From assembly GCA_963845085.1 (NCBI GenBank), contig CAWJQI010000005.1, positions 160,001 through 224,000 of the forward strand: 64,000 nt of DNA, given 5' to 3'. Both the position numbers and the translations under genes were made by a program. The notes under the pieces are model-generated. The model saw only the letters and a list, made by a program, of their open reading frames with translations. It was not told the DNA's origin and searched no databases. The DNA is from Candidatus Fermentibacterota bacterium (GTDB taxonomy: Bacteria; Fermentibacterota; Fermentibacteria; Fermentibacterales; JCC-6). This document shows, in pieces, positions 754-28,910 of the stretch (positions are counted from its first letter, which is position 1; every line of letters starts with the position of its first letter).

Positions 754-1644
754 TCAGTGTCCCCCTTCAGAGGCGCCCGTCCAGGAAAAACCTGCGGCGT
801 CATCAAAAACCCCGGGTTTATCGCCGGCGAAAGAGATTGATGCCAGAACGGTCTCGGCGGCAGTCTCGGGTTCGAGGCCGAACTCGAGTATCAGGTTCAG
901 ATAGTAGATCTCTATCAAGCCGCTTGCAGCCCAGTCAACGGACCTGTCGTACCCCGAGATGAACACGTCGCCCGAAAGCCTTTCCACAAGGTCGGGAAGC
1001 CTTCCGCCCATGATCTCGCATGCGGAGAAGTGAACCAGCCTGGCGTTCCCGGAAACCGTTCGGATGCAGTCCAGAAGGGTGGTCAGGGGAATGGTGCCCT
1101 CCCGGCAGCTCACACCGTCAACCGTGGCGTGGGATGCGATGAGAAGGTAAAGGTCGCCCTGGAGCATGGAGGCCTCTGTGCACAGGCTCTGAAGGTCTTC
1201 CGCGCTGTGGAACCACCTGTGCCTGACCTGAACCCCGGGAACCCTCCTGAACCACTCCGTGAGCATCCACCCGAACGAGTACTGCGGTTCGTCGATGAAT
1301 TCCTCCCACTCCGCTTCGAGAATCACAAGCCATTTCCCGCCGGCGTCAGAGCCGATGAGATATCCCTCCCACGGAGACCAGGAAGTTCCCCCTTCGGGGC
1401 GCCACATTCCGCTTATGCGGCCGTCGGCCAGTTCGAACCAGCCCTCGCCCCGGGCATCCGCCTCGGTGTAGGTGAAGACCAGCCTGCCCGACGGCTCGAC
1501 AGTGCCCTCGATTGAGCTGATCCCGCCGTAGGAGTAGTAACCCGTAACCTCGGTTCCGTTCTGGGTCAGCACCATTCTGCCGTAGGTGGTATCCCAGGAG
1601 CCGGAGTAATCCGTCGTCGAAACGAGCAGCAAAAGCAGGATCAT
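754..1644 (-). CDS. Secreted two-domain protein: small beta-barrel domain plus caspase/CHAT-like (DUF6642-like) domain
   Basis: Hydrophobic N-terminus. Beta-rich YSGSWDTTYGRMVLTQ...GEGWF...ISGMW domain, then LYLLIASHA...VHFSAC...ISGY...VDW. ATGA overlap with the alaS stop. Confidence 0.6.
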   Translation of the reverse strand: MILLLLLVSTTDYSGSWDTTYGRMVLTQNGTEVTGYYSYGGISSIEGTVEPSGRLVFTYTEADARGEGWFELADGRISGMWRPEGGTSWSPWEGYLIGSDAGGKWLVILEAEWEEFIDEPQYSFGWMLTEWFRRVPGVQVRHRWFHSAEDLQSLCTEASMLQGDLYLLIASHATVDGVSCREGTIPLTTLLDCIRTVSGNARLVHFSACEIMGGRLPDLVERLSGDVFISGYDRSVDWAASGLIEIYYLNLILEFGLEPETAAETVLASISFAGDKPGVFDDAAGFSWTGASEGGH

Positions 1645-3437
1645 TGTTTTTCCTCCAGGACAGCCCTTATCCTTCGCACACCCCGGGATGAGCTCTTCTC
1701 GGAAAGTATTCTGAAGCCAACCAGTTCAGATGTGTTCGTGACATGAGGTCCGCCGCAGATCTCCCGGGAGAAGCCTTGAATGCTGTAAACCTTGACTTTG
1801 TCTCCGTAACGATCCTTGAAGAAACCAAGTGCCCCGTGAGCAAGCGCTTCCTCCGGGGAGGACTCGCTGACCGTGACATCCAGCCCGGCCCTGATCGCAC
1901 GGTTCACATAATCCTCGACAGCCTCGATCTCTGCCGGTGTCATGGGGTCGGGGTGGCTGAAATCGAACCTGAGCCTCTGGTCGGTGATGTTCGAGCCCTT
2001 CTGTGCAACGTGATCGCCCAGAACCTTGCGCAGCGCAGCATGAAGGAGATGCGTAGCGGTATGAAGCTTTGTAACGAGGTCGCTGTGATCGGCAAGCCCG
2101 CCCTTGAACTTCTGTTCGGCGCCCTTCCTCGAAAGCTCCCTGTGCTTCCCGAAAGCCTCGGTGAAGCCCTCCATGTCGACAGCCAGCCCTTCCTCGACCG
2201 CAAGATCGGCGGTGAATTCGACAGGGAACCCGTATGTGTCGTACAACCGGAAGGCAACCCGGCCGGGGATGGTTTTTGACGGGTTCCTGAGCAGGTTCGG
2301 AAGAAGCTTCTGAAACTCCTTAACACCTGTCAGAAGGGTTTTCCCGAACAACTCCTCCTCGCGGTCGAGTTCGTCCCTGATCTTTGCGGCATTCCTTTCG
2401 AGCTCGGGGCAGCTTCCGCTTTCCAGGTTGACGACCCTTTCCGCGAGCTTCCAGGTAAATCCCTCGGGAATTCCCAGTTTCATCCCGTGCCGTGCCGAAA
2501 GGCGGATAAGGCGGCGAAGCACGTAACCCTGGTCAAGGTTGGACGGGGTCACACCGAGATCATCGCCGAGTATGTGGGTGGCGCTCCGGATGTGATCGGC
2601 GATTATCCTCATGCTGCGGAGCTGATCGGAGTCGGGCTCGCCTGTCATGCCGGCGAGTTCGCGGATCCCGTCGAAAAGGTTCCGGAACTCGGCAATGCCG
2701 TACACGCTGTCATGCCCCTGAAGCATCGCCACTGTCCGTTCAACTCCCATGCCCGTGTCAACGCTTCGCAGTTCCATCGGTTCGTAGGTGCCTTCGGGGG
2801 TCTTGCGGTACTGCATGAAGACATCGTTCCAGACCTCGAAATACTTGCCGCAGGAACACCCCGGCCTGCACGAGGGACCGCATGCAGCCCTTCCGGTGTC
2901 GAAAAACATCTCGGTGTCGGGACCACAGGGTCCGGTCCTGCCGGTGGGCCCCCACCAGTTGTCCTCCATGCCCAGAAAGTGAATCCTCTCCTCGGGAACG
3001 CCGGCCTCGATCCAGAGAGCGGCGGCCTCATGGTCCGGCGGAACGAGTTCGTTCCCGCCGAAAACCGTCACGGAGATCCTGTCCGGGTCGAACCCAAGCC
3101 ATTGCCTGCCGGTCAGGAATTCGTGGCTCCAGGTGATGGCCTCCCGCTTGAAGTAATCCCCGAGCGACCAGTTCCCGAGCATGCGGAAAAAGGTAAGGTG
3201 GGAGCTGTCGCCAACCGAATCAATGTCTCCGGTCCTGATGCACTTCTGGACGTTCACGAGGCGACGCCCGACCGGGTGCTTCTCCCCCAGAAGGAACGGA
3301 ACCAGCGGCTGCATGCCGGCGGGTGTGAATAGAATGGTGGAATCGTTTTCGGGTATGAGGGAGGCACCGGGTATGACCGAATGCCCCTTACCCCTGAAGA
3401 ACTCGATGTAGAGTTCAACCAGGCGGCTCGTGGTCAT
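1641..3437 (-). CDS. alaS: Alanine--tRNA ligase (short form lacking C-Ala)
   Basis: AGMQPL, QKCIRTGD, GPCGPDTE, DTGMGVER, LYDTYGFP; editing motifs HTATHLLH and CGGPH. Confidence 0.97.
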   Translation of the reverse strand: MTTSRLVELYIEFFRGKGHSVIPGASLIPENDSTILFTPAGMQPLVPFLLGEKHPVGRRLVNVQKCIRTGDIDSVGDSSHLTFFRMLGNWSLGDYFKREAITWSHEFLTGRQWLGFDPDRISVTVFGGNELVPPDHEAAALWIEAGVPEERIHFLGMEDNWWGPTGRTGPCGPDTEMFFDTGRAACGPSCRPGCSCGKYFEVWNDVFMQYRKTPEGTYEPMELRSVDTGMGVERTVAMLQGHDSVYGIAEFRNLFDGIRELAGMTGEPDSDQLRSMRIIADHIRSATHILGDDLGVTPSNLDQGYVLRRLIRLSARHGMKLGIPEGFTWKLAERVVNLESGSCPELERNAAKIRDELDREEELFGKTLLTGVKEFQKLLPNLLRNPSKTIPGRVAFRLYDTYGFPVEFTADLAVEEGLAVDMEGFTEAFGKHRELSRKGAEQKFKGGLADHSDLVTKLHTATHLLHAALRKVLGDHVAQKGSNITDQRLRFDFSHPDPMTPAEIEAVEDYVNRAIRAGLDVTVSESSPEEALAHGALGFFKDRYGDKVKVYSIQGFSREICGGPHVTNTSELVGFRILSEKSSSRGVRRIRAVLEEKQ

Positions 3438-3440
3438 GTT

Positions 3441-4565
3441 CTAGAACTCCTTCTGGAAGATCCTGTACCGCTTGTAGATGTCGGCCTTGATTTCCTTTTC
3501 GAGGATGGCCCGCATTGGGATGTTGTTCTCGAGCACCCAGGAAAGCTCTCCCCTGGCCATTCCGAGCCGGTGGCTTTCCCTGACGATGCTGTCAACGATG
3601 AGGGCTTCAAGCCCCCTTCCCCGGAACTCCTTCTTCACGCCCATGAGCAGAACGCGAACCCTGTCGATCTTTACCCTGAAGGGCGGGACCTTGAGTGCAA
3701 GAATAGTCGGCAGAAGCCTTCCGCCGCCCTTCTTTATGCCCACGTTGGCATCGGGGAGCGCCACGCCGAAGGCAACAGGAACGCCGTCGAATTCAACGAC
3801 CGGGGCCATGGATGCCACCAGCATGAGCTTCATCTCCTGGGCGAGAGAGTCGAACTCCCTCTGCGTGGTCGGCACGAAGCCCCAGTTCTCGCACCAGCAC
3901 TCCCGGTAGATGTCCATGACGACACGAAGGTCTTCCTTGAAACGGCGCATGTTCAGCGGGCGCAGGGTAACGTTCTCGCGGCGCCTCACGAGGTCGGCCA
4001 CCCTGGACAGGCGGTCGAAGTTGTGAACGTCCTTCTCGGCCCAGTAGGCCAGAAGGTCCATCTCCTTGTGAAAGCCGGCGCCGAGGATCAATTCTTCGTA
4101 CCAGGGCGGATTGTGCGGCATCATGACCATGGGGGGGGTGTTGAACCCTTCGACGAGGCAACCGCAGGTCTCATTGGTGCTGAAATTGAAGGGGCCCTGG
4201 ATCCTCTCCATCCCACGCTCCCTGACCCAGTCAGATGCTGCGTTGAGCAGGGCCGATGCGGCTTCCTGGCTGCGGCTGACCTCAAAAAAGCCGAAGTGGC
4301 CGGTCTTCTCGCCGTGAAAGTCGACGAAGGCGTGGTTTACTGTGGCGCACACCCTTCCAACGGCGGTTCCGGAATCATCGCGGGCAAGCAGGAACTCGAC
4401 GTCGGCGTGTTCGTGGAAGGGATGGTGTTTTCTGTCCAGGCTGTTCCGCGCATCCATGAAAAGGCTGGGAACCCAGCAGGGATCCTTCCCGTTGACGTCG
4501 AACGGAATCCTTATGTACTCCCTTTTCTGTCCGGGGCTTTCAACCCTCTCGATGGTAAGCGGCAT
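3441..4565 (-). CDS. Tandem-GNAT N-acyltransferase, YghO/bacterial ceramide synthase (bCerS)-like
   Basis: DPCWVP, HPFHEH, GHFGFFE, GPFNFSTNE, MMPHNPPWY, NWGFVP, LPDAN, MGVKKEFRGRG, ELSWVLENN. Lies directly downstream of spt. Confidence 0.75.
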   Translation of the reverse strand: MPLTIERVESPGQKREYIRIPFDVNGKDPCWVPSLFMDARNSLDRKHHPFHEHADVEFLLARDDSGTAVGRVCATVNHAFVDFHGEKTGHFGFFEVSRSQEAASALLNAASDWVRERGMERIQGPFNFSTNETCGCLVEGFNTPPMVMMPHNPPWYEELILGAGFHKEMDLLAYWAEKDVHNFDRLSRVADLVRRRENVTLRPLNMRRFKEDLRVVMDIYRECWCENWGFVPTTQREFDSLAQEMKLMLVASMAPVVEFDGVPVAFGVALPDANVGIKKGGGRLLPTILALKVPPFRVKIDRVRVLLMGVKKEFRGRGLEALIVDSIVRESHRLGMARGELSWVLENNIPMRAILEKEIKADIYKRYRIFQKEF

Positions 4566-4574
4566 CTCACCCCT

Positions 4575-5753
4575 TCAGATAAGCCCCATCCGGCTTCCCA
4601 CGGTTTTAAAAACCTCAAGTGCCCTGTCGATCATCTCCGGGGTGTGGCTGGCCATGTAGCTGGTGCGGAGCATGGCCTGGCCATGGTCGACGGCTGGGCT
4701 CACCACGGCATTGGTGAACACACCGTGCTCGAAGAGCTCTTTCCAGAACCTGAAGCACACCAGGTCTTCGCCGACTATTATGGGCACTATGGGTGCCTCG
4801 CTGTTGCCCACGTTGAAGCCCATTCCCCGAAGCCCGCATCGGCATCTTTCCGCGGCGTCATGCGATTTCTGCACGAGGCCGGGGTCATCCTGGAGTATCT
4901 CGAGTACCGCAAGGACCGTGGCGACCGCCGGGGGTGGAAGGCTCGCGCTGAAGATGTTCGTTCTTGCAACATGGCGTATGTAGTCAATGACCGTTTCGGG
5001 ACCCGCCCCGAAGCCGCCGATACAGGCAAACGACTTGCTGAAGGTGCCCACCAGGATGTCGACCCTGTCCTCGCAACCGAGGTGTTCTGCAGTCCCGCGC
5101 CCGTGCATGCCCATCGCCCCGACGCCGTGGGCGTCGTCGACCATCAGCCTGACGCCGAACTCCTCAGCCAGGTCGCACAGACCGGGTATGTCTGCAAGGT
5201 CGCCCTCCATGCTGAAGACGCCGTCGGTGATGATCATTCCGGGGTGCTCGCGATGGGTCTCGAGCAGGTGTCTCAGGCTTGCGAGGTCGTTGTGCCGGTA
5301 TTTGACTACCTTGGCATAGCCCATCCTGGTGCCGTCGATTATCGATGCGTGGTTCTTCCTGTCAATGAAAAGAACCGATCCACGATCGCCGATCGTCCCG
5401 ATCACACCGAGATTGGCCTGAAAACCCGTGCTGAAGGTAACACAGGCTTCCTTGCCGAGGAACCTGGCCAGCTTCTCCTCGAGTTCGAGATGGATGTCGA
5501 GCGTTCCGTTCAGAAAACGGCTTCCGGTGCAGCCCGTGCCGTACTTTCGGATCGCTTCGCAGGCCCTGTCCATTACATGGGGGTGGTCGGTCAGGCCCAG
5601 GTAGTTGTTCGAGCCCAGCATGATCACCTTGCGGCCCTGCATCTCCATCTCCGCGCCCACGTGGCCGGAAAGGGGAACGAAATAAGGGTATAGACCCAGT
5701 GCCTTCACTTTCGCGGGTCTGTCGAACTCACCGCATTTCTGAAAGATGTCCAT
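4575..5753 (-). CDS. spt: Serine palmitoyltransferase-like alpha-oxoamine synthase (PLP class II)
   Basis: MDIFQKC...GLYPYF N-terminus, GSNNYLGL, GTGCTGSRFLNGT, NHASIIDG, DGVFSMEGD, DDAHG, GTFSKS (PLP lysine). Start moved to ATG 5753. Confidence 0.8.
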   Translation of the reverse strand: MDIFQKCGEFDRPAKVKALGLYPYFVPLSGHVGAEMEMQGRKVIMLGSNNYLGLTDHPHVMDRACEAIRKYGTGCTGSRFLNGTLDIHLELEEKLARFLGKEACVTFSTGFQANLGVIGTIGDRGSVLFIDRKNHASIIDGTRMGYAKVVKYRHNDLASLRHLLETHREHPGMIITDGVFSMEGDLADIPGLCDLAEEFGVRLMVDDAHGVGAMGMHGRGTAEHLGCEDRVDILVGTFSKSFACIGGFGAGPETVIDYIRHVARTNIFSASLPPPAVATVLAVLEILQDDPGLVQKSHDAAERCRCGLRGMGFNVGNSEAPIVPIIVGEDLVCFRFWKELFEHGVFTNAVVSPAVDHGQAMLRTSYMASHTPEMIDRALEVFKTVGSRMGLI

Positions 5754-5806
5754 CACTTGCGAATCCTGTTCTGCTGGAGTGACTGTCTTTCGGAATAACT
5801 TGCGGG

Positions 5807-5854
5807 AATCTAACACTGCGCGGGGTGAATGGGAACAACCCCATTCGTTATCAT
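5807..5854. promoter_or_regulatory. Divergent promoter region between spt and the reductase, containing an inverted repeat
   Basis: Minus-strand TGt-TAGATT (5812-5807), plus-strand TATCAT (5849-5854), and GAATGGG-N6-CCCATTC (5827-5846) between them. Confidence 0.5.
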
Positions 5855-5875
5855 TGAACGAACGGGGGAGGATCA

Positions 5876-6799
5876 ATGGGCACGGTATTTCTCACAGGCG
5901 CCACTGGTTTCGTGGGCGGTGCACTCTGCAGGCTACTCATACGACGGGGATTCCGGGTCAGGGCCGCCGTGCGTGCCTCTTCGAACGCGAAGGCCGTTCC
6001 CGAAGGCTCGAACATTGTGAGGGTGGACTTCCTCGATCCGGACAGCCTTGCGCCGCACCTCGAAGGGGTCGATGTGATCCAGCATGTCGCCGGCGCCGTG
6101 AAGGCCCGAAGCCAGGAGGAGTTCGATCTTGCGAACGCTGCCGTGACGGCAGCCCTGGTGAAGGCCGCCAATATGGCGTGCAAAGACGCTCGGTTCGTGC
6201 TGACGTCGAGCCAGGCGGCCGCGGGACCATGCGGCACGGGTCCTGTCACGGCCTATGGCAGAAGCAAGCTTCTGGCCGAGCGAGCCGTCACCGGGTTTCA
6301 CAACCACGTTATCATCAGGCCGCCGGCGGTGTTCGGCCCCGGCGACGAGGCTACGAAAGGCATTTTCAAGTGGGCCGGGCGCGGCTTCTTCGCAAGCCCG
6401 AATGCGAAGGGGGCGTTCTGCGCGATCTTCGTCGACGATCTTGCCGAACTGCAGGTCAGGGTCATGGACCACCCCGAAGCCATGGGAATGATACTCCAGC
6501 CGTCCTATCCTGAACGGATCTCGTGGAAGGCATTCCATGCCGCACTGCAGGAAGCGGCGGGCAGGAAGATCATTCATCTGAAAGTGCCCGGAGCATTCAT
6601 CCACATGGCCGGTGCGTTCGCGGAAGTCGCCGCAGGGATCACCGGCGCCTGCCCGATGGTAACCCGGGACAAAGCGCGGGAACTCACGGCAGGGCAGTGG
6701 GTGATCAGGCAGGATGAGGTTCGGGAGCTTGTCGGCTGGGAGCCCGAGGTTCCCCTGGTCGAAGCCCTGAGGCTTTCAATGCACCGCGGTTCCCTTTAG
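5876..6799 (+). CDS. NAD-dependent epimerase/dehydratase (extended SDR), ceramide reductase CerR-like
   Basis: TGATGFVG Rossmann motif, YGRSK (YxxxK), IRPPAVFGPGD. GGAGG RBS. Divergent from spt. Confidence 0.7.
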   Translation: MGTVFLTGATGFVGGALCRLLIRRGFRVRAAVRASSNAKAVPEGSNIVRVDFLDPDSLAPHLEGVDVIQHVAGAVKARSQEEFDLANAAVTAALVKAANMACKDARFVLTSSQAAAGPCGTGPVTAYGRSKLLAERAVTGFHNHVIIRPPAVFGPGDEATKGIFKWAGRGFFASPNAKGAFCAIFVDDLAELQVRVMDHPEAMGMILQPSYPERISWKAFHAALQEAAGRKIIHLKVPGAFIHMAGAFAEVAAGITGACPMVTRDKARELTAGQWVIRQDEVRELVGWEPEVPLVEALRLSMHRGSL

Positions 6800-8014
6800 C
6801 AGAATCCAGCCGGCGAGTACCACAAGATTCATCGCGGTTACCAGAACACCGGACCTCGCGTATTCCCGAAAGCTTATGCTGACTCCGTGAAGCCTTGCCT
6901 GCTCTATCACGATCAGATTGGCCATGCTGCCGATGGTGAAAAGGTTGCCGGCATACGTGGTGGCAAGCGACAGAACGTACCAGAGCACCGGCGATCCCGT
7001 GGGCATGTGGGGGCTCAGAAGAACAGTGGCGGGCACATTGCTCACCACGTTGCTCAGTGCAACTGCCGCCAGGGAGAGTGCGAAGGGGTTCGAGAGGGAA
7101 ACGCCCCGCCCTTCGAGAAATGCCAGGAAGGCCTGCGGAAGCCCGGTTGCGTTGAAACCGGCCACAACGATGAACAAACCGCAGAAAAGCGTGATCAGGT
7201 GCCAGTCAACCAGCCCCAGTATCGACCTTGTATGCATGCGTCTGCTGAGTAGAAGCACGGCAGCAACCGTGATGACCGACCATTCCCTGGGCATCGGCGA
7301 GAAAAGGAGGATGACGACAGCTACTGCGGCAGCCAGTCCCTTGGCGGTCTGCCAGCGGTTGAACTCGGGCCACTTCCTGTCGGGTGGTTCGGCCGGAGCG
7401 CTGAGGAAGAACCTCCCCCTGTAGACCAGCCTGAGTATCCCGTAGGTCAGGATGAGGCATACGAGCGAGGGCGGACCGCACCAGAACAGGAAGTCACGGA
7501 ACGACAAGCCGGCGGTCTGGCCGATCAGCATGCTCTGGGGATTTCCGATTATGGTGGCGGCCGATCCCAGGTTGGTGCCCATGGCAAGGCCCAGAAGGAA
7601 CGGGACAGGGTTCATTCCCCGGCGGCGGAGCGCAACTGCGAGGACGGGTGTGAAGGCAAGGCAGATGATGTCGTTCGCAAGAACCGATGCAAGAAGCCCG
7701 CTTGAGATCATCAGGACGAAAAGAAACTTTCCGGGGTTCCCGGCCAGTGATGCGATCCGCACGGCGAGCCAGGTGTAGAAGCCGCCGAGCCGGAGCTGGG
7801 CCGACACGATCATAAGGCCGTAGAGGAGCAGGAGGGTTCCGAGGCTTATCGAGCCAAGCGCCTGCCCCGGGGTCAGAACGCCGAAGACCACCATGCCGAT
7901 CGCTCCGAGCAGGGCGATCCCGGTCCTGTCGATCGCGAGCCTCGGGATACCGCCCAGGGCGACGCCGGCATATGTGACGGCGAAAAGTAAAGCAGAGATC
8001 GTTGTCGAATCCAT
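6776..8014 (-). CDS. ArsB/NhaD (IT superfamily) anion permease
   Basis: DRTGIALLGA, NDIICL, NLGSAATIIGNPQ, VSNVPA, AGNLFTIGSMANLIV; many TM segments. TATAAT at 8040-8035 and GGAGG RBS. Confidence 0.85.
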   Translation of the reverse strand: MDSTTISALLFAVTYAGVALGGIPRLAIDRTGIALLGAIGMVVFGVLTPGQALGSISLGTLLLLYGLMIVSAQLRLGGFYTWLAVRIASLAGNPGKFLFVLMISSGLLASVLANDIICLAFTPVLAVALRRRGMNPVPFLLGLAMGTNLGSAATIIGNPQSMLIGQTAGLSFRDFLFWCGPPSLVCLILTYGILRLVYRGRFFLSAPAEPPDRKWPEFNRWQTAKGLAAAVAVVILLFSPMPREWSVITVAAVLLLSRRMHTRSILGLVDWHLITLFCGLFIVVAGFNATGLPQAFLAFLEGRGVSLSNPFALSLAAVALSNVVSNVPATVLLSPHMPTGSPVLWYVLSLATTYAGNLFTIGSMANLIVIEQARLHGVSISFREYARSGVLVTAMNLVVLAGWILLKGTAVH

Positions 8015-20118: not shown

Positions 20119-21549
20119 TTAGAATCTCCGCCTTCTTCTTGCGGATTCGATACCCATTTCCATCCTGTAATTGGCAACTGTGCGGCGCTTGACCGGTATT
20201 CCCATGCCGGAGAGCACCGCTGACAACCTTTCGTCGGACAGGGGGTCGGAAGGATCCTCGTGGCTGACGAGCCTGCGGATCTCCTCTCTGACCCTGGCGG
20301 CGGAAGCATCGGTTTCGCCGCTTCCCGCGGCCCTGCTGAAATAGAACTTCATCTCATGAATCCCCTGGGGCGACTGCACATACTTTCCGTTCACGGCGCG
20401 GCTGATCGTCGATGCGTTGTAGCCAAGGGCATCGGCCGCCTGCTGCAGCGTCAGCGGACGGAGGAAGTCGAGGCCGTTCTCGAGAAACTCACCCTGTGCC
20501 TCGACGAGGAAGCGCCCGATTCGCAGCACCGTGTCCTGGCGCTGGGAGATGGCCCTTAAAAACCAGCCGGCCCTTCTGAACTTTGACTTGACGTAGTCAC
20601 GCTCGACGGGAGAGGTTGACGGGGATTCGAGGACCCTTCTGTTCCGTTCGCTTATGTGAAGCCTTGGAAAGCGGCTGTCGTTCAGGAAGACAACGAAGCC
20701 TTCGTCTGTCTTTTCGATGATGAGGTCGGGGATGACCACCGAATTTGTGTCGGTGCCGAATTCCGCCCCCGGCCACGGGTTCAGCGAGAGGATCACCGAG
20801 GAGGCCTCCTCGACCCTGGCCGGTGAGACACCCAGCGCCCTTGCCATGGCTGGAATCCTGCGGGATGCAAGGTCGTCGAAGTGCTCATCCAGTATCCTGA
20901 ACTCGAGCGAGTCGTCGGTGTAACCCTGTGCCTTCAGCTGGACCTTGAGCGCATCCTGGGCGGTCGGCTGCCCCACCCCCAGCGGCTCAAGGCTTCTGAC
21001 CACGTCGAGAGCCCGCGGCAGCATCGCCGGGTCGCCCTCCCAGCCCTGCATGAGTTCCTGCATGCCGCAGCAGAGAAGCCCGTGCCTGTCCAAAGAGTAG
21101 ATGATGTATGCGGCTGCGGCTTCTACACCCGGCCCTGGACCGAGTTGCTGCACCTGCCGGATGAGATGCTCGGAGAGCGTAATGCTGCTTTCCGGCTCGG
21201 GTCTCCAGGGGTCGTCATCCTGCATTGAGCCCCCGGACGGGTATTCGCCGGAATCCTCCTCCAGCTGCTTCAGGATGTCCATGGTGTCATCCTCGGTCTC
21301 GTCCTGACGCGAAGGCTCATCTTCCGCGTCCTGTTCCGGCTGCTCCGGCTCGGGTTCGTCCTGTCCCTGCTGAAGCGCATCGACTTCCTCCAAAAGGGGG
21401 TTGTCCGACAGCTCCTGACGGATCAGGGCTTCCAGTTCGAGGGAGGAAAGCTGGAGCATCTCCAGCTGCTGGCGGAGGGTCTGGGTCATTACCAGCCTCT
21501 GCGACTGGACAAGTTCAAGCTGGGGTCTCATCTCCTGTCTTGCGGTCAC
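20119..21549 (-). CDS. rpoN: RNA polymerase sigma-54 factor
   Basis: Gln/Leu-rich region I, NPLLE, STISRAVNGKY, PLSD, RpoN box RRTVANYR. Confidence 0.95.
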   Translation of the reverse strand: MTARQEMRPQLELVQSQRLVMTQTLRQQLEMLQLSSLELEALIRQELSDNPLLEEVDALQQGQDEPEPEQPEQDAEDEPSRQDETEDDTMDILKQLEEDSGEYPSGGSMQDDDPWRPEPESSITLSEHLIRQVQQLGPGPGVEAAAAYIIYSLDRHGLLCCGMQELMQGWEGDPAMLPRALDVVRSLEPLGVGQPTAQDALKVQLKAQGYTDDSLEFRILDEHFDDLASRRIPAMARALGVSPARVEEASSVILSLNPWPGAEFGTDTNSVVIPDLIIEKTDEGFVVFLNDSRFPRLHISERNRRVLESPSTSPVERDYVKSKFRRAGWFLRAISQRQDTVLRIGRFLVEAQGEFLENGLDFLRPLTLQQAADALGYNASTISRAVNGKYVQSPQGIHEMKFYFSRAAGSGETDASAARVREEIRRLVSHEDPSDPLSDERLSAVLSGMGIPVKRRTVANYRMEMGIESARRRRRF

Positions 21550-22274
21550 AGCTTGAACTTCTCCCCGAGATAGATCTTCCTTGCTTCCGGATCATCGGCG
21601 AGTTCAGCGGCCGACCCGGAGATGAGAATACGCCCGTCGTACATAATATAGGCCCTGTCGGTTATCGCAAGAGTTTCCCTGACATTGTGGTCCGTGATCA
21701 GAACTCCGAGTCCCTTCCGGGCAAGACCGGCAACGATCTCCTGTATCTCGTTGACGGCGATCGGGTCAATACCGGCGAAGGGCTCGTCCAGAAGCATGTA
21801 CCCGGGCCGGGTGACAAGAGCGCGAGCGATCTCGACCCTTCTCCTCTCCCCGCCTGAGAGGGTGAACGCCTTCTGCGATGCAAGATGAGTCACGCCAAGA
21901 TCATGCATGAGTTTCTCGCACCTGTCGTTCCTCTCGGTTCTGGTGAGGCCCATCGTCTCAAGAATGCAGAGCAGGTTGTCTTTTACCGTCATCTTTCGGA
22001 AAACGCTGGATTCCTGCGAAAGGTAGCCTATCCCGAGCCTTGCACGGCGGTACATGGGCAGACGGGTTATATCCTTCCCGTCGAGCCAGACGCTTCCGGA
22101 ATCCGGCCTGATGAAGCCGACGATCTGGTAGAAGGAGGTGGTCTTGCCGGCCCCGTTCGGGCCAAGGAGCCCCACTATTTCGCCGGGGTGAACCTCGACG
22201 CTTACGCCGTCGACGACCCTCCGCTTCCTGTAGGTCTTCACAAGATCCCTCGCCGCGAGTATCCTGTCAGTCAC
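21546..22274 (-). CDS. lptB: LPS export ABC ATPase
   Basis: GPNGAGKTTSF, LPMYRRARLGIGYL, LSGGERRR, DEPFAGIDP, ITDHNVRETL, YLGEKF. Confidence 0.97.
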   Translation of the reverse strand: MTDRILAARDLVKTYRKRRVVDGVSVEVHPGEIVGLLGPNGAGKTTSFYQIVGFIRPDSGSVWLDGKDITRLPMYRRARLGIGYLSQESSVFRKMTVKDNLLCILETMGLTRTERNDRCEKLMHDLGVTHLASQKAFTLSGGERRRVEIARALVTRPGYMLLDEPFAGIDPIAVNEIQEIVAGLARKGLGVLITDHNVRETLAITDRAYIMYDGRILISGSAAELADDPEARKIYLGEKFKL

Positions 22275-23310
22275 GAAACTCTCCGCTCCAGCTGTAGGTG
22301 CCCCTCACCGTTCCCCAGGCCGTAACCCTGTCCATCTCCCCGCCCACGAACCTAAGCACGAGATTCTCCGCAGTGATCGTGTTGGCCTCGGACCTTTCCA
22401 GCCCTGACGAGACGGCGTTCATCGTGGCGGTTCCCGACAGGTGGAGAGAGTCGAGCTCGGTTTCGTCCCCCGGGATGAAGCCGAAGAAAGCACGCTGCGA
22501 GGAAAACTCCACGTTGGTGGTGTCGTCCCTCGTGAGGTGCCCGCGGGCGTTGCCCTCGATCCGCAGGGACTCGAGATCCCCGTCCCTCAAAAGAACCTCC
22601 ATCCAGTCGCCGTTCAGGATCCCCTCGGGCGCTTCCACCCTTGGAGCCCCTATCAGTTCGAGCTTTTCTTCCTCCCCATGGAAGAGCATGTATTCAGCAA
22701 CAGCCGTGAATTCACGGGATGGCATCCTGAGGATTCCGTCTCCCTGAGCCTCGGCCCTGTCCTCGTCGAGGAAGAACTCGAGCCGCTGGGCCGTGATGGT
22801 TAGGGAATCTCCTCCCTCAACCCTTCTGAGTTCGGGCTCGCTCGTCACGAAAAGGCTTCCCCGGTCGCCGTCGTACAGCGCATACTCGCCGGTAACCTCC
22901 CCGAGCCACTCGCCGGTCATGATCACGGCGCCCAGGGCTGTGGCCTTGTTCATGAACCGGTACCAGGTTATCCGGTCGGCTCTCAGAGTGCTTTCGCCAT
23001 CCAGCAGGACGGCGTTCCCAATGAGCTGCAGCAGCCCCGACGGTCTTGAGTAGGAGAGAAAGGCTCCGGTCGCCGTAATGGAGTCGTGCAGAACGTGAAC
23101 ATTGTCATGGAACTCGGCTGTCTGGGCTGTCTCGAAGATGGTTGCCCTGTCGGACGTGACCGTGACCTCGCCGTCCGTTACGGAGACGCTGTCCGTGAGT
23201 TCGAGCACCACCGTGCCGTCCTCCAGCTCGGTCGACCAGGCGTGCAGCGCCGTCACGGTGAACACGCCGGCGTGCGCGGTGAAGGATGCGAGCAGCAGGG
23301 CCCTAATCAA
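22267..23310 (-). CDS. lptA: LptA/OstA-like beta-jellyroll protein (long form)
   Basis: Signal peptide and repeated OstA-type strands (LRADRI, ATALGAV, AEAQGDG). Lies between lptC and lptB. Confidence 0.7.
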   Translation of the reverse strand: MIRALLLASFTAHAGVFTVTALHAWSTELEDGTVVLELTDSVSVTDGEVTVTSDRATIFETAQTAEFHDNVHVLHDSITATGAFLSYSRPSGLLQLIGNAVLLDGESTLRADRITWYRFMNKATALGAVIMTGEWLGEVTGEYALYDGDRGSLFVTSEPELRRVEGGDSLTITAQRLEFFLDEDRAEAQGDGILRMPSREFTAVAEYMLFHGEEEKLELIGAPRVEAPEGILNGDWMEVLLRDGDLESLRIEGNARGHLTRDDTTNVEFSSQRAFFGFIPGDETELDSLHLSGTATMNAVSSGLERSEANTITAENLVLRFVGGEMDRVTAWGTVRGTYSWSGEFRD

Positions 23311-23872
23311 GGTCGGACACCTCGCCGCTGTAAACGGCCTGGAATGATTCGCTTACCATCACGTCGCCCACGGTGCCAAGGCCCGTGTTCAGGGTGACTC
23401 CCCTGCCCCTGAGCACCGTCACGCCGTCATCCTCGGGCACGGTGAACACTGTGAGGCAGTCGGTGTAGAAAACGCCGAGCGAATCATCCCATAGAAGCAG
23501 GGGGGTCTCCAGCCTGCGCCCCTCGACGTTCTCGGCCACGACCGATCCCCACAGAACGGTCTCGCCGGAGACGAGGCTGGCTCTTCCCGAATCTGAACGC
23601 ACCGTGCTCTCCGGTCGGTTTTCGAGGAAGAACGTGATGTGTACTCCGGAAAGGGTAACGAGGCTGTCGTCTTCGAGATAGATCGCCGTATCGCCCTGAA
23701 GGCTCCAGGATCTGTCCGGCCCCTCGGCCTGGGTGAGCCTGAAACCCGATACGGTCTGGACCCTTCGGGATTCCGACGAGTATTCTCCGGGCTGTTCACC
23801 GCACGACAGGCCTGAAAGCAGGGCTGCGACCCCAGCGATCGTGAAACCAAATCCACTGGCCGGGTTCCTCAA
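23303..23872 (-). CDS. lptC: LPS export periplasmic protein LptC (lipoprotein-like signal)
   Basis: LSGLSC lipobox-like, W.L.G..A, V.SDSG, LWGSVV, LETPLLLWD, G.G. Gene position fits. Confidence 0.75.
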   Translation of the reverse strand: MRNPASGFGFTIAGVAALLSGLSCGEQPGEYSSESRRVQTVSGFRLTQAEGPDRSWSLQGDTAIYLEDDSLVTLSGVHITFFLENRPESTVRSDSGRASLVSGETVLWGSVVAENVEGRRLETPLLLWDDSLGVFYTDCLTVFTVPEDDGVTVLRGRGVTLNTGLGTVGDVMVSESFQAVYSGEVSDLD

Positions 23873-24692
23873 CTATCCACTCCCCGATTCTTCTGTTGAA
23901 CTCCGCCGTAAGCATGTTGACACCCTCCTCGCCCTCCATTCCACGGGTATCGACCGGGGGATCGATCACGAGGAGATATCCCATGCCAACCCTTCTTATA
24001 TGAAGCGTGACGGCGGGAATGCCAAACCTGAGGCAGATCGAGGCCGGACCGACCGGCGTGAGCGCAGGGACATCCAGGAAGGGGATGAACCGCCCCTCGA
24101 CCGCCTTGGTCTCCTGGTCGATAAGAATGCCGACCGCCGTGTTGTTCCTAAGAGTCCTCACGAGCCTCAAGGCCCCCTCGCCACGGTCGATGGTCTCGAC
24201 TCCCGAACGGCGCCTCAGCGAATCCAGTTCTTCAGAGATCAGGGGGTTCCAGAGCTTGCGTCCAACAATGCCCACCCTGTGCCCGAGAAGGGTGATGGCC
24301 CTGGGGATGAGCTCCCATGCGGAGTAATGGGCGGTGACGACCACCGCACCCCTGCCCTGCGCCATGATCGCGGCCAGATGCTCTTCCCCGGAAACCCGTA
24401 CGATGCGCCGGAAAGAAGTGTCGTCCATTGCGGACAGCCTCAGAAAATCGAGCATCCCGGCCGTCATGTGCCTGTAAACTAGCGCCGGGGCAACATGCAG
24501 CCCCAGAGGGGCCGCCACTTGCGATATGTTCCTTGACATGAACCGGTTGGAGCGCCCCGGCAACACCGATGCCGCCGCTCCGATGAGGCATGAGAGCGCC
24601 CATCCGACCCGTCTGGGGAGCACTGCACCCAGCTTCATGATGCACCGGCAGAGAAGCGGTTCCAGATGCCTGTGACGAAACGTGCGGAGCAA
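23796..24692 (-). CDS. LpxL/HtrB-family lipid acyltransferase
   Basis: TAHYSAWE, LIDQ, FIPF, PGQWIWFHDRW. Confidence 0.88.
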   Translation of the reverse strand: MLRTFRHRHLEPLLCRCIMKLGAVLPRRVGWALSCLIGAAASVLPGRSNRFMSRNISQVAAPLGLHVAPALVYRHMTAGMLDFLRLSAMDDTSFRRIVRVSGEEHLAAIMAQGRGAVVVTAHYSAWELIPRAITLLGHRVGIVGRKLWNPLISEELDSLRRRSGVETIDRGEGALRLVRTLRNNTAVGILIDQETKAVEGRFIPFLDVPALTPVGPASICLRFGIPAVTLHIRRVGMGYLLVIDPPVDTRGMEGEEGVNMLTAEFNRRIGEWIVEEPGQWIWFHDRWGRSPAFRPVVR

Positions 24693-24695
24693 ATC

Positions 24696-25652
24696 CTACC
24701 TGAAACCTTCGCGAAGTGCGTCGTGCAGGTAGAGGATCCCCACGGGCCTTCTATCCGCATCGACCGCCACCACTGACGTGATGCCCCGCATCTCCATCGT
24801 TGAAACCGCCGATGACGCAGGCTCGTCGGGACGCACGACCGATGGCTCCCTGACGAGGACGTCGGAGAGGGTGAGATTCAGAATGTCAGCCCTGTTTCGC
24901 ATGAGCCGGCCGAGGTCGCCGTAGACGAAGATTCCGGACAGGCGCCCCGTGTCGTCCGTTGTGATGCACACGCCCCTGTGCCTGGTCATGATCTCCACCG
25001 CCTCGGAAAGTGGCATGTCTTCGCGCGCCAGCGGCAGGGTCTTCGAGACCATGATGTCGCTGACCCTGAGAAGAAGCTTTCTTCCCAGCATGCCCCCGGG
25101 GTGCACGTTCGCAAAATCCTCGGGGGAGAAGCCGCTCAACCTGAGGAGTGCCATGGCAAGTGCGTCGCCGATGGCCATCATGGCGGTGGTGCTGGCGGTG
25201 GGCGCCAGATTGTACGGGCATGCCTCTTCAAGATCAGGAAGCAGCAGAACGGCTGCGGAAGCCCGTGCGAGTATGGAATCCTCCCGGGATGTAATCGAGA
25301 CGATTGGAACGCTGAGCCGGACGAGCGCCGGGAGCATTGCAGCAATCTCGGGCGTTCCTCCGCTCTTCGAGAGAACCAGCGCGCTGTCGCCCGTTGCAAG
25401 GATTCCTATGTCGCCGTGGATTCCCTCGGCCGGGTGCAGGAAGTATGCCGGAGATCCAGTGCTTGTGAGCGTTGCAGCGATCTTGCGGGCCACCAGGCCG
25501 GATTTGCCCATGCCGCAGACTACGATCTTGCCGGCAGTCTGTCTCAAAACATCGACCGCGGGGTCGAAGCGGTCGGCGTTCAGGCTGATGCTTGCCCTGA
25601 GCCAGTCCGCCTCGATCCCGATCACCCTGCCGGCTTCGTCAGAGCACTTCAT
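24696..25652 (-). CDS. kdsD: Arabinose-5-phosphate isomerase (KpsF/GutQ, SIS plus CBS)
   Basis: GMGKSG, HPAEGIHGDIG, EACPYNLAPTAST, HPGGMLG, CBS pair. Confidence 0.95.
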   Translation of the reverse strand: MKCSDEAGRVIGIEADWLRASISLNADRFDPAVDVLRQTAGKIVVCGMGKSGLVARKIAATLTSTGSPAYFLHPAEGIHGDIGILATGDSALVLSKSGGTPEIAAMLPALVRLSVPIVSITSREDSILARASAAVLLLPDLEEACPYNLAPTASTTAMMAIGDALAMALLRLSGFSPEDFANVHPGGMLGRKLLLRVSDIMVSKTLPLAREDMPLSEAVEIMTRHRGVCITTDDTGRLSGIFVYGDLGRLMRNRADILNLTLSDVLVREPSVVRPDEPASSAVSTMEMRGITSVVAVDADRRPVGILYLHDALREGFR

Positions 25653-26118
25653 GCCTTGCCTCCAGGATCATTTCGGCCACTTCCCTCACCGCTCCCGCAC
25701 CGCCCGGAGCCGAGGCAACGAGTGAACACCGCGCGATAACTTCGGGAGCCGCGTTGGAAGGGCATGCTGCAACCCCTGCCAGCTCGAGCGCGGGCAGATC
25801 GTTCGCATCGTCACCCATGAACAGGGTGTTCGACAGTGGAACCCCGAGGAATCCGCAAAGGTCCCTGAGGGCTTCGTCCTTGCGTCTGCAGCCGAGTGCA
25901 AGGTGTTTGATGCCGAGGTCGGCTGCCCTTCGCCTGGTGGCGGGGAAATCGCGAAGGGACAAAAGGGCAACCTCGAATCCTGCCCTGAGGAGTTTCATGA
26001 TGCCTTCGCCGTCCCGCGCGGAATAGAACTGACCCACACCGTCGGGACCGTAGAAAAGCCTGCCGTCAGTCAGCGTTCCATCCACATCAAGGCATACAAG
26101 ACGGATCCCTGAGAGCAT
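25639..26118 (-). CDS. kdsC: KDO-8-phosphate phosphatase (HAD)
   Basis: DVDGTLTDG, RDG.G, MGDDANDL, GG.GAVRE. Confidence 0.92.
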   Translation of the reverse strand: MLSGIRLVCLDVDGTLTDGRLFYGPDGVGQFYSARDGEGIMKLLRAGFEVALLSLRDFPATRRRAADLGIKHLALGCRRKDEALRDLCGFLGVPLSNTLFMGDDANDLPALELAGVAACPSNAAPEVIARCSLVASAPGGAGAVREVAEMILEARHEVL

Positions 26119-26291
26119 CGAATTCTTCCTTCCGGGTGAAAACATCTCAATATCAAACATATGAAAAGAATCCCGGGGCTGCCCGACGGTGCTTCATCGG
26201 CATGTGCCAAAAGTGCGCACCGGATCATGATGACGGGAAGGGGAACAATGACGTGGTCCAATCCACAGATCCCGCCGGTTCCCGGTGGCTG

Positions 26292-27419
26292 CTACACCTG
26301 TGTCAGGCTTTTCCAGTAAACCCTTGACCGCCTGTGAAGCCTTTTTTCATAGAACTTCCATTGAGCCTGGATCCTCGTGTTGGTCTCGAGCTCACGGTTG
26401 CTCTCGGCGTGCGTCATACCCCGTGCGAGTGCTGACAGCCCCATCTCGTAGCTCATCAGCAGGTCGATCCCCTTGCCCTGGTACTCGTGGCGGATGCCGG
26501 CAAGGTAGAAGTCGAGGACCCTGCTTTTCCTCATGGCGCGGAGGACGTGGATAAAACCAAAGGGGAACAGCCTGCCGCGGGCCTTGCGGAATGCCTGTGT
26601 GAGGCTGGGCATCGCGATTATGAACCCTACGACCCTGTCGCCCTCGGCGGCTATCTTCACGAACTCGGGGTCGACATGTCCGAGATAGCTTTTTATGTAG
26701 AAGTCTATCTCCTCCTGGGAAAGCAGGGTGGTTCCATAAAGGTCCCTGTAGGACTCGTTCAGCACATCGAACACCTGGGGTGCCCACTTCCTGGCGAGTT
26801 CCTTCCTGCTGCTCTCGGAAAACACCCTGACGGTTGTCCTTCGGCGGATCAGGTCGGCCATCCTCTGAACCTTTTCGGGTATCTCCCGGGGTACCGTGAT
26901 GCGGTATTCGACGTAGTCGACATCCTTCACGTAACCCCTCTTTTCGATGAACTCTCCGTACCAGGGTGGTGACCAGCTGCCGACGATGGTCGGCTCCTCG
27001 TCGTAGCCCTCCACCAGAAAACCTGTGGCGTCATTGTCGGAAAAGCCCATCGGACCGACTGCACGGGTCATCCCGGCCGCGGCAAGCCAGCGTTCCGCCC
27101 CGTCGAGCAGAAGCTCGGCCGCATCGGGGGCATCAGCCTCGAACCAGCCGAACCTGCCTGTACTGGAGCTGTTCTTGATGTTGTACTCCCTCGATATGAC
27201 GGCGGCGACCCTTCCGCACAGGGCACCGTCACGGTATGCAACGAAGAAGCGGGAGTCGCAGTGATTGAAGGCGGGATTCTTCGCCGGATCGAAGAACACC
27301 TTCTCCTGCATCAACAGCTGGGGCACCCATCGGGACTCGCTGCCATGGATCCGGAACGGCACCGAAATGAACTTGTTCATCCCCCGGCCGGGTTCCACCT
27401 CGACAACTCTAACGCCCAT
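26292..27419 (-). CDS. Second tandem-GNAT YghO/bCerS-like acyltransferase
   Basis: WVPQL, KNPAF, GRFGWFE, GPMGFSDND, PPWY, AMPSL, GIRHEYQGKG, ELETN. Start overlaps the kdsA stop. Confidence 0.75.
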   Translation of the reverse strand: MGVRVVEVEPGRGMNKFISVPFRIHGSESRWVPQLLMQEKVFFDPAKNPAFNHCDSRFFVAYRDGALCGRVAAVISREYNIKNSSSTGRFGWFEADAPDAAELLLDGAERWLAAAGMTRAVGPMGFSDNDATGFLVEGYDEEPTIVGSWSPPWYGEFIEKRGYVKDVDYVEYRITVPREIPEKVQRMADLIRRRTTVRVFSESSRKELARKWAPQVFDVLNESYRDLYGTTLLSQEEIDFYIKSYLGHVDPEFVKIAAEGDRVVGFIIAMPSLTQAFRKARGRLFPFGFIHVLRAMRKSRVLDFYLAGIRHEYQGKGIDLLMSYEMGLSALARGMTHAESNRELETNTRIQAQWKFYEKRLHRRSRVYWKSLTQV

Positions 27420-28203
27420 TCTCGGCCTCCGTTCCCCGCCAGTACCGCAACGCCTCGCCCACAAGAACCTCGGCCCCCCTGAAATCGAGCATCACGCTTC
27501 CATCGCTTCCAGCTGTCTTCGGGTCGGGATGGACCTCGAGGAAAATCCCGTTCACACCCCATGCTGCGGCAGCCCTTGCCATGTTCAGTGCGAAGCTCCG
27601 GTCACCCCCGCTCTCAGCTCCGAGTGCGCCGGGTTTCTGAAGCGAATGGGTCACGTCCATGATCACTCCGTCACAAAGGCCGGCCATCACTGAAAGGGAT
27701 CTCATGTCCACTACAAGGTCGCCGTAGCCGAAGAAAGAGCCACGCTCGGTGAGCCAGACCATGGGGCACCCCTCACCCTTCAGCTTGGCCACTGCGCCCG
27801 CCATGTTCTCAGGCGCCATGAACTGACCCTTCTTGACATTGACAGGGCGTCCGGTCGAACCGGCGGCCTCGAGAAGGCTTGTCTGTCGGCAGAGAAAGGC
27901 CGGGATCTGGATGTAATCCGCGACCTCCGCCACGGGAGCCGCCTGCGAGGGGATGTGTATGTCCGTCAGCACGGGAAGGCCGGTCTCCGCCCTGACCCTT
28001 CCGAGTATCGAAAGCCCCTCGACGAGCCCCGGTCCGGTCCAGCTGCCGCGAGAGGTCCTGTTGTCCTTCAGGAAAGACCCCTTGAAAACGAATCGGGCAT
28101 TGTGGGAAGAGGCGAGCGAACTGATGAAGCGACCTGTTTCAAGGGCCATGTCAAGGCTTTCGAGACCGCACGGGCCCATGATGAAAAGCGGTCTGTCACT
28201 CAC
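27409..28203 (-). CDS. kdsA: KDO-8-phosphate synthase
   Basis: GPCGLES, KDNRTS, LTDIH, QIPAFLCRQT, NVKKGQF, TERG, DVTHS, EVHPDP. Confidence 0.95.
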   Translation of the reverse strand: MSDRPLFIMGPCGLESLDMALETGRFISSLASSHNARFVFKGSFLKDNRTSRGSWTGPGLVEGLSILGRVRAETGLPVLTDIHIPSQAAPVAEVADYIQIPAFLCRQTSLLEAAGSTGRPVNVKKGQFMAPENMAGAVAKLKGEGCPMVWLTERGSFFGYGDLVVDMRSLSVMAGLCDGVIMDVTHSLQKPGALGAESGGDRSFALNMARAAAAWGVNGIFLEVHPDPKTAGSDGSVMLDFRGAEVLVGEALRYWRGTEAENGR

Positions 28204-28910
28204 GAAAAAGCCCTCCTTGCCCGTTCAAGGTCCTCCGGGGTGTCGACCCCGAGGGCGTTCCAATCCCCGGTTCCAACGCTGATGGGAATGCCCCTTTCAA
28301 GCCAGGCAAGCTGCTCCAGCCTCTCCCTCCGGGAAAGTTCCGTTTCACCGGCCTGCATGCAAGCCTCAAGGCTCTCGGGGGTGAAGCAGTAAACCCCGGC
28401 GTGCCGAAGGTATACGCCGTCCCCCCATGGGATGGGGCTTCGGCTGAAGTAGAGAGCCCTGCCTCCGGTTCCGACAGCAACTTTCACGGCCGACGGATCG
28501 GTCTCTTCCCCGGGTTTCATGGGCGAGGCAAGGGTTGCCACGCCTTCACCGGCCACGGAGACAAGTTTGTTCACCCATTCCATCGATGCACAGGGTTCAT
28601 CGCCCTGCAGGTTGACTATCCGTCCGGCGGGAGAACCCAGGGCCTTCCAGGCCTGATAGACCCGGTGGGTGCCCGAAAAAGCCTCGCCGGTCAGGATTGC
28701 ACGGTATCCGCAGGCTTCCACGGTTCGTACGATTTCGGGGCTGTCCGTTGCCACCACCGCCAGAACCGCCCCGGTTGGGCCCAAACTCTCAAGAACACGA
28801 ATGATGAGGGGCTTGCCGCAGACATCCGCAAGGGGTTTCCCGGGAAGCCGGGACGAACCCATGCGCGCCGGGATGACGACCGTCAGTCCAGCCAGTGTTC
28901 CGAGGCCCAT
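28200..28910 (-). CDS. kdsB: CMP-KDO synthetase
   Basis: IPARMGSSRLPGKPL, SGT.R, NLQGDEP, ALYFSRSPIP, LEQL, VDTPEDL. Confidence 0.95.
   Translation of the reverse strand: MGLGTLAGLTVVIPARMGSSRLPGKPLADVCGKPLIIRVLESLGPTGAVLAVVATDSPEIVRTVEACGYRAILTGEAFSGTHRVYQAWKALGSPAGRIVNLQGDEPCASMEWVNKLVSVAGEGVATLASPMKPGEETDPSAVKVAVGTGGRALYFSRSPIPWGDGVYLRHAGVYCFTPESLEACMQAGETELSRRERLEQLAWLERGIPISVGTGDWNALGVDTPEDLERARRAFS

Follow-up and report, generated by a model that had tools for sequence, protein, structure and literature searches.

The window analysed here, a stretch of 64,000 nucleotides from a Candidatus Fermentibacterota genome (contig CAWJQI010000005.1 of assembly GCA_963845085.1), contains three adjoining genes that we suggest encode the core of a bacterial ceramide pathway (Table 1). 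The first, spt, specifies a pyridoxal 5'-phosphate (PLP)-dependent α-oxoamine synthase (AOS) resembling bacterial serine palmitoyltransferases (Spt); the second, a tandem GNAT protein resembling the bacterial ceramide synthase bCerS; and the third, an extended short-chain dehydrogenase/reductase (SDR) resembling CerR. A Pfam scan assigns them the aminotransferase I/II fold, GNAT, and epimerase-type SDR, respectively. The GNAT gene lies 9 nt behind spt and 3 nt ahead of alaS, and the SDR gene is transcribed divergently from spt; the three reading frames, the 9-nt and 122-nt gaps, and the divergent SDR are all as the original prediction had placed them. The listed TTG-start version of the spt frame is 433 aa long and reaches back to 5876. 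The GC content of the cluster (60.3%) is close to that of the whole window (60.8%). A sigma-70 consensus scan of the gap between spt and the SDR gene returned zero sites, and the counts of the promoter and terminator scans are at chance level.

The three enzymes and their conservation

The evidence supports the identification of the PLP enzyme as a serine palmitoyltransferase-like AOS, predicted from its sequence to form 3-ketosphinganine. Its top PDB match is the S. multivorum SPT (E 3.6e-115; the next family reaches 1.7e-85), its top NCBIfam model is NF047600 (CFB Spt, 473.5 bits), and it has the catalytic His/Asp/His/Lys set of a fold-type I PLP AOS (H135, D206, H209, and K240). The motifs GLYPYF, GSRFLNGT, and GTFSKS, on which the original prediction had based its assignment, begin at residues 20, 77, and 236; the last of these is named for SPT in PMC10196870. 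The enzyme retains N49, G77, S78, N114, H135, S181, D206, H209, T237, S239, K240, and A270, matching residues of the S. multivorum SPT named in PMC10196870 and PMC13692747. Its pocket is of the serine rather than the cysteate type: S78, N114, and A270 correspond to Ser81, Asn117, and the Ala at the position of SulA Lys281, which according to PMC9304779 distinguishes Spt from SulA, and the cysteate-type changes described in PMC13692747 and PMC9304779 are absent. An AOS tree from which a long-branch CFAT-like row and five others had been removed, and to which six had been added (with no HemA row), places the enzyme in a clade with the Caulobacter, E. coli, and Parapedobacter Spts (100/98), separate from the BioF (99/97) and Kbl (100/100) clades; a forced grouping with Kbl is rejected (approximately unbiased test, p-AU 0.008). 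The phylogenetic check against BioF and Kbl that had been proposed for this enzyme comes out in favour of Spt. The two other full-length AOS genes of the genome are of the Kbl type and lie on contig C1, where two tandem Kbl-type genes stand behind an acetyl-CoA-synthetase-like gene.

The tandem GNAT is likewise supported as bCerS-like, and we predict that it N-acylates the long-chain base. It is 35.2% identical to the Caulobacter bCerS orthologue over 383 aa (E 5e-68) and 34.5% identical to E. coli YghO (E 3e-74), is the top match in the genome for both, and passes the bCerS filter given in PMC11334938 (E ≤ 1e-30, coverage ≥ 50%). A quick tree of the family (41 rows) divides into two branches (SH-aLRT 100, length 0.89); the cluster GNAT falls on that of Caulobacter bCerS and YghO, with the same letters at six diagnostic columns (the type-1 signature). 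The loop FRGRGL, which we take to be the CoA-binding motif A of GNAT proteins, is intact. A PDB sequence search with the GNAT gave zero significant matches; its AlphaFold2 model, built from a 120-row alignment, has a mean predicted local distance difference test score (pLDDT) of 93.7 (single-sequence folding, with a pLDDT of 32, was discarded), and the best PDB fold matches are two-domain GNATs with template modelling (TM) scores of 0.59–0.65. The protein has no transmembrane helix, its highest 19-residue hydropathy being 1.54.

The SDR is the weakest link and the least certain of the three parts. With Caulobacter CerR it shares 31% identity and with the epimerase of the E. coli cluster 29%; it has TGATGFVG at residue 7, SSQAA at 111, and YGRSK at 127 (the NAD(P)H motif and the Ser/Tyr/Lys triad), with neither a signal peptide nor a membrane helix. 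It is the top match in the genome both for Caulobacter CerR (phmmer 6e-26; next 9e-7) and for the E. coli epimerase (3e-29; next 1e-6), and when it is used as the query, the top match is the SDR of the spt cluster in four of four outside genomes. The reciprocal best matches asked for by the original prediction were thus obtained in part: the cluster GNAT and the SDR are the top matches for the Caulobacter proteins, but for the SDR the relation was obtained in one direction with Caulobacter CerR, whose reference was a set of loci rather than the whole genome, and in both directions with the E. coli epimerase. The pair SS[LQ][AS]A and YxxSK is common to all 22 aligned cluster SDRs and occurs in 0 of 16 other SDRs, the nearest of which has SSIAA with YAVAK. 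Some genomes of genus g8 (L144–L146), in which the second GNAT described below was not found, have a second extended SDR that is about 30% identical to the cluster SDR and forms its own clade.

We surveyed 70 genomes of the phylum, all of one order and hence not independent. Matches to spt and to the type-1 GNAT were each found in 67 and to the SDR in 65, and the block is intact, spt and GNAT facing the same way and the SDR pointing away from them, in 58. In ten of the 12 remaining genomes, the genes were found on separate contigs and, judging from their coordinates, mostly close to contig ends; in the last two, G022 (61% complete) and G034 (90%), searches for spt, the type-1 GNAT, and the SDR were all without a match. 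As the same order and orientation are kept in 58 of the 70 genomes, the arrangement is not due to chance, and the block looks like a vertically inherited core trait of the phylum. The gene alaS follows the GNAT gene in 60 of the 70 genomes, and no comparison locus from another phylum has it next to the cluster. The original prediction had taken co-transcription with alaS as a sign of a core, constitutive function; the adjacency stands, but it is a lineage-specific gene order, and alaS is probably a conserved neighbour outside the ceramide pathway.

Several observations weigh against the ceramide reading of the cluster. The Spt reaches none of the NCBIfam Spt cut-offs (473.5 against 640 for NF047600); such models are specific to lineages, and the NF047600 cut-off is likewise out of reach for four other cluster Spts. 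A first AOS tree (25 rows), which included the long-branch CFAT-like row, left the base of the Spt clade unresolved, and an uncharacterised Parapedobacter AOS (L088) also lies inside the 100/98 clade of the second. With either query, the SDR misses the CerR filter given in PMC11334938 (E ≤ 1e-30 at a database size of 1e8), its values at that size being 2.4e-18 (Caulobacter) and 2.6e-30 (E. coli). A single CerR clade is unresolved at the base of the SDR tree, in which CerR monophyly is not rejected (p-AU 0.33). The genome has four classical-SDR matches, which may include a KDSR, and according to PMC11087976 the order of the steps is disputed in the literature.

Table 1. Positions of the genes discussed, in the window unless a contig of the same genome (C1, C4, C5) is given
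Feature	Position	Strand	Remarks
spt	4575-5753	-	392 aa from ATG at 5753
Tandem-GNAT gene (bCerS-like, Caulobacter/YghO type)	3441-4565	-	374 aa
CerR-like extended SDR gene	5876-6799	+	307 aa; TGATGFVG, SSQAA, YGRSK, RPPAVFGPGD
Intergenic gap from spt to the divergent SDR gene	5754-5875	.	122 nt; presumed shared promoter region
alaS (short alanyl-tRNA synthetase, PRK01584 type)	1641-3437	-	NCBIfam NF002436, 885 bits, above cut-off
Gene directly after alaS	754-1644	-	296 aa
CitMHS/ArsB-NhaD-type transporter gene	6776-8014	-	24-nt overlap with SDR 3' end
Second bCerS-family GNAT gene (Bacteroides-type clade)	26292-27419	-	375 aa
kdsB-kdsA-[second GNAT]-kdsC-kdsD-lpxL-like-lptC-lptA-lptB-rpoN block	20119-28910	-
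MIPS gene	C5:809521-810612
PIP-synthase-like gene	C5:810661-811266		next to MIPS
Aur1-like (PAP2_3) gene	C4:238563-239453
Tandem Kbl-type genes and acetyl-CoA-synthetase-like gene	C1:190584-195434

Order of the steps, acyl donors, and rival readings

Taking these points together with the evidence above, we consider it likely that the three genes are the core of a ceramide pathway in Ca. Fermentibacterota, predicted to act in the order Spt, bCerS, and CerR and to yield dihydroceramide. The original prediction had proposed these three functions, an organism of the FCB (Fibrobacterota, Chlorobiota, and Bacteroidota) group, and a dihydroceramide product, and that reading survives the best-match, tree, active-site, and synteny tests; Fermentibacterota is a member of the FCB group. 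In the proposed mechanism, the PLP enzyme would condense L-serine with a long-chain acyl thioester to give 3-ketosphinganine, the tandem GNAT would N-acylate this to 3-keto-dihydroceramide, and the SDR would use NAD(P)H to reduce the ketone to dihydroceramide. The order is that described for Caulobacter (PMC11087976) and from knockouts of B. fragilis (bioRxiv 10.1101/2023.05.23.541633). The cluster contains no head-group or export genes, and any head-group decoration would come from unlinked genes.

Reduction could instead come first, as in eukaryotes, with the same three enzymes: the SDR or another, classical SDR would make sphinganine, which the GNAT would then acylate. Such an order was proposed for Caulobacter by another group, as related in PMC11087976, and sphinganine is described as the main intermediate in B. 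thetaiotaomicron (bioRxiv 10.1101/2023.05.23.541633); the lack of a signal peptide or membrane helix in the window SDR and the presence of classical SDRs besides FabG would fit it too. We judge it unlikely, since cerR knockouts are described as piling up keto-ceramide in both Caulobacter and B. fragilis. The missing signal peptide does not discriminate, because Caulobacter CerR also starts directly with its Rossmann strand.

The acyl donors of the pathway in its Spt, bCerS, and CerR order are less easily assigned. The original prediction had noted that no acyl carrier protein (ACP) or acyl-ACP synthetase gene adjoins the cluster, which is correct at the locus, and had suggested acyl-CoA as the donor for this reason. 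That step does not follow, since an ACP of fatty acid synthesis and FadD-like ligases are both in the genome. The one ACP, in a genome that is 88% complete, lies inside a plsX-fabH-fabG-acp-fabF block, and the ligases are three FadD-like proteins and one acetyl-CoA-synthetase-like protein. No close relative of AcpR or of AasR (best 23–27% identity) was found in this 88% complete genome, which thus shows no sign of the dedicated ACP and acyl-ACP synthetase of the AcpR/AasR-dependent Rhodobacterial pathway. Acyl-ACP that stems from the synthesis of fatty acids has been argued to be the likely donor for bacterial Spt-type enzymes (PMC9304779), and Rhodobacterial Spts are described as preferring the dedicated acyl-AcpR (PMC9386255). 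Given that there is no dedicated AcpR or AasR, the long-chain base would be built from acyl-ACP or acyl-CoA of housekeeping metabolism, and for N-acylation acyl-CoA would be the more likely donor; acyl-CoA as the donor is unproven. A four-residue insertion in the CoA-binding loop of four proteobacterial rows is absent from the cluster GNAT, but those four rows are related to one another and the insertion is also missing from an Acidobacteriota cluster that has an ACP of its own, so we regard it as a mere hint about the donor.

We also considered a different amino-lipid, arising either because the PLP enzyme favours Ala or Gly and makes 1-deoxy bases, perhaps with a tie to alaS, or because the GNAT uses Ala-tRNA in the manner of the FemX/MprF-type double GNATs. 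The adjacency of alaS could be read in this way, tRNA-dependent double GNATs are among the fold matches (FemX, TM 0.43–0.45; L-PGS, 0.43), the S. multivorum SPT is reported to accept Ala and Gly at low efficiency (PMC10196870), and 1-deoxyceramides have been described from the Black Sea (PMC11334938). The serine pocket, however, agrees with canonical Spts, the non-tRNA tandem GNATs are the better fold matches, and the CoA-binding loop is intact. Moreover, alaS is the sole match for an alanyl-tRNA synthetase in the genome (tblastn) and is absent from all comparison loci of other phyla. We therefore think this reading very unlikely. A BioF, Kbl, or cysteate acyltransferase with incidental neighbours is extremely improbable as the identity of the PLP enzyme, for although the enzyme scores 360–390 bits on the BioF and Kbl models of NCBIfam while reaching no Spt cut-off, it reaches no BioF or Kbl cut-off either, has none of the letters of Kbl (SVRF, T[LF]GK), BioF (GSG, TFGK), or CFAT-type enzymes (GA, TFAK, the Lys281 equivalent), is kept from Kbl by the tree test, and bCerS and CerR relatives adjoin Spts in unrelated phyla.

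A second GNAT and genes for inositol lipids

The window contains a second bCerS-family GNAT, 28.6% identical to the cluster GNAT and in a separate clade from it (SH-aLRT 100). A GNAT of Bacteroides finegoldii, which we infer to be the orthologue of BF9343_4218, is 36.6% identical to the second GNAT and 26.7% to the cluster GNAT. The second GNAT was found in 46 of the 70 genomes of the phylum and in none of the 22 of genera g7, g8, and g9. Carrying both types is not unique to this lineage, since 4 of 61 sampled Bacteroidota-phylum genomes have one close (39–42%) and one distant (28–31%) match.

Its gene lies in a block of kds and lpt genes (Table 1). A general tie of the second GNAT to Kdo (3-deoxy-D-manno-octulosonate) synthesis and lipopolysaccharide (LPS) export was rejected, as among 20 neighbourhoods this setting recurs only in G062 of the same genus, where a Na+/H+ exchanger gene lies between the second GNAT and kdsC. 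We also rejected the replacement of lipid A by ceramide; among the lipid A genes covered, lpxC scores above its cut-off, and lpxA- and lpxD-like neighbours are in the genome. No conserved lipid neighbourhood was seen among the neighbourhoods listed for the second GNAT, whose surroundings change from one family to another (aldehyde dehydrogenase, radical SAM, cyclic-nucleotide-binding protein, and PMT-type transferase). In genera g2 and g3 (L057:2792-7402 and related loci), the genes near it encode a radical SAM/SPASM protein, a PMT-type glycosyltransferase, and one unknown protein. At other loci, a Bacteroides-type GNAT stands beside a membrane protein that is PAP2-like by eye (L155) or close to an AOS in which a GVFGM stretch is CFAT-like (L156), a hint that head-group or sulfonolipid pathways may be served by this branch as well.

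The genome has MIPS, PIP-synthase-like, and Aur1-like genes, which resemble the inositol-ceramide genes described for B. thetaiotaomicron (PMC9246714). They do not form one cluster and are physically unlinked to the ceramide genes. MIPS is found in 68 of the 70 genomes. Matches to the Aur1-like protein, one of them weak, were obtained in 56; it was not found in 12 of the 19 genomes of genus g8. These genes hint at an inositol-phosphoceramide as the predicted end product. It is possible, although we would not favour it, that the organism uses two synthases, one of the Caulobacter and one of the Bacteroides type, with differing acceptor or acyl specificity, and that MIPS and the Aur1-like enzyme lead on to inositol-phospho-dihydroceramide.

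Neighbouring genes, related systems, and implications

The gene directly after alaS, which encodes a 296-aa protein, is conserved in this place at 17 of the 21 phylum loci inspected. The N-terminus of the protein is hydrophobic, and the Pfam and NCBIfam scans returned no match; its look-alikes in the Atlas are among unnamed Planctomycetota-rich clusters (0.96–0.97), with weaker DUF6642/CHAT leads (0.81–0.82), and it is possibly a secreted caspase-like protease. The transporter gene overlapping the 3' end of the SDR gene is found near the SDR in five of six close relatives and in none of 15 more distant loci. Loci with 80–90% identical cluster GNATs include those of Ca. Fermentibacteraceae/Hyd24-12, the nearest named relatives. 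Hyd24-12 is described as comprising fermentative diderms with LPS, and the part of that description consulted (PMC5030696) does not mention ceramides or sphingolipids.

The pathway of Caulobacter and E. coli consists of Spt (CCNA_01220), bCerS (CCNA_01212; YghO in E. coli), CerR (CCNA_01222), AcpR, and AasR. Our Caulobacter reference loci were found through the primers in the supplement of PMC11087976: L053 is an exact match for the two cerR primers and for the forward primer of spt. The two spt primers and the forward primer of bcerS match L054, whereas the cerR primers and the reverse primer of bcerS do not; the bCerS of L054 is thus a close orthologue whose identity with CCNA_01212 is not proven. 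The E. coli reference cluster is annotated as spt, ACP, epimerase, fatty acyl-AMP ligase, and yghO. The Fermentibacterota cluster shares the three core families, each of its proteins being the top match in its genome to the counterpart, and its GNAT has the same type-1 signature residues. It differs in lacking AcpR, AasR, a dedicated LptF/G, and a flippase, in the divergent SDR, and in the CoA loop of the GNAT, which is without the proteobacterial insertion.

For the Bacteroidota, the points of reference are the S. multivorum SPT, CerS (BF9343_4218) and CerR (BF9343_4240) of B. fragilis, and BT_1522/1523/1525/1526 of B. thetaiotaomicron. The window Spt is closest to Spts of this phylum (52–57% identity to nine spt genes adjoining type-1 GNATs; clade 97/93), and the clade of the second GNAT and the inositol and Aur1-like genes are further likenesses. 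In Bacteroides, however, the ceramide genes are described as scattered (PMC11334938), whereas in Fermentibacterota they are clustered; unlike Bacteroides, the window genome has both GNAT types, and its inositol and Aur1-like genes do not form one cluster. The blocks of Acidobacteriota and Parapedobacter (L008–L010) are similar in that a type-1 GNAT comes immediately after spt, a CerR-like SDR is present, and an AasR-like gene is lacking. In those blocks the SDR comes next on the same strand, whereas in Fermentibacterota it is divergent and alaS comes after the GNAT. Parapedobacter koreensis (L010) has this compact spt-bCerS-cerR block in a Bacteroidota isolate and offers a culturable model for a compact cluster; further AOS genes in its genome are L089, which is CFAT-like, and the uncharacterised paralogues L084 and L088.

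We regard the Fermentibacterota cluster as a new representative of a pathway already known, and since both the pathway and its wide spread have been published, the surprise is small. Potential sphingolipid producers have been extended to 40 phyla (PMC11334938). A full-text search of the literature found no paper pairing Fermentibacter with a sphingolipid, and neither the Black Sea paper (PMC11334938) nor its preprint names Fermentibacterota in its main text; the phyla covered there are listed in a figure and in supplements, and the lineage may already be in published producer lists. Through this finding, the sphingolipid producers would gain an uncultured, fermentative phylum that occurs in digesters and sediments, one in which the ceramide genes are near-universal rather than patchy, and there would be a candidate source for the ceramides of anoxic environments. 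As a minimal three-gene set without AcpR and AasR, the cluster is suited to questions of acyl donor and step order. If two synthases do operate, both types would be directly comparable in one small genome, and the product would provide a lipid marker for an uncultured anaerobic phylum.

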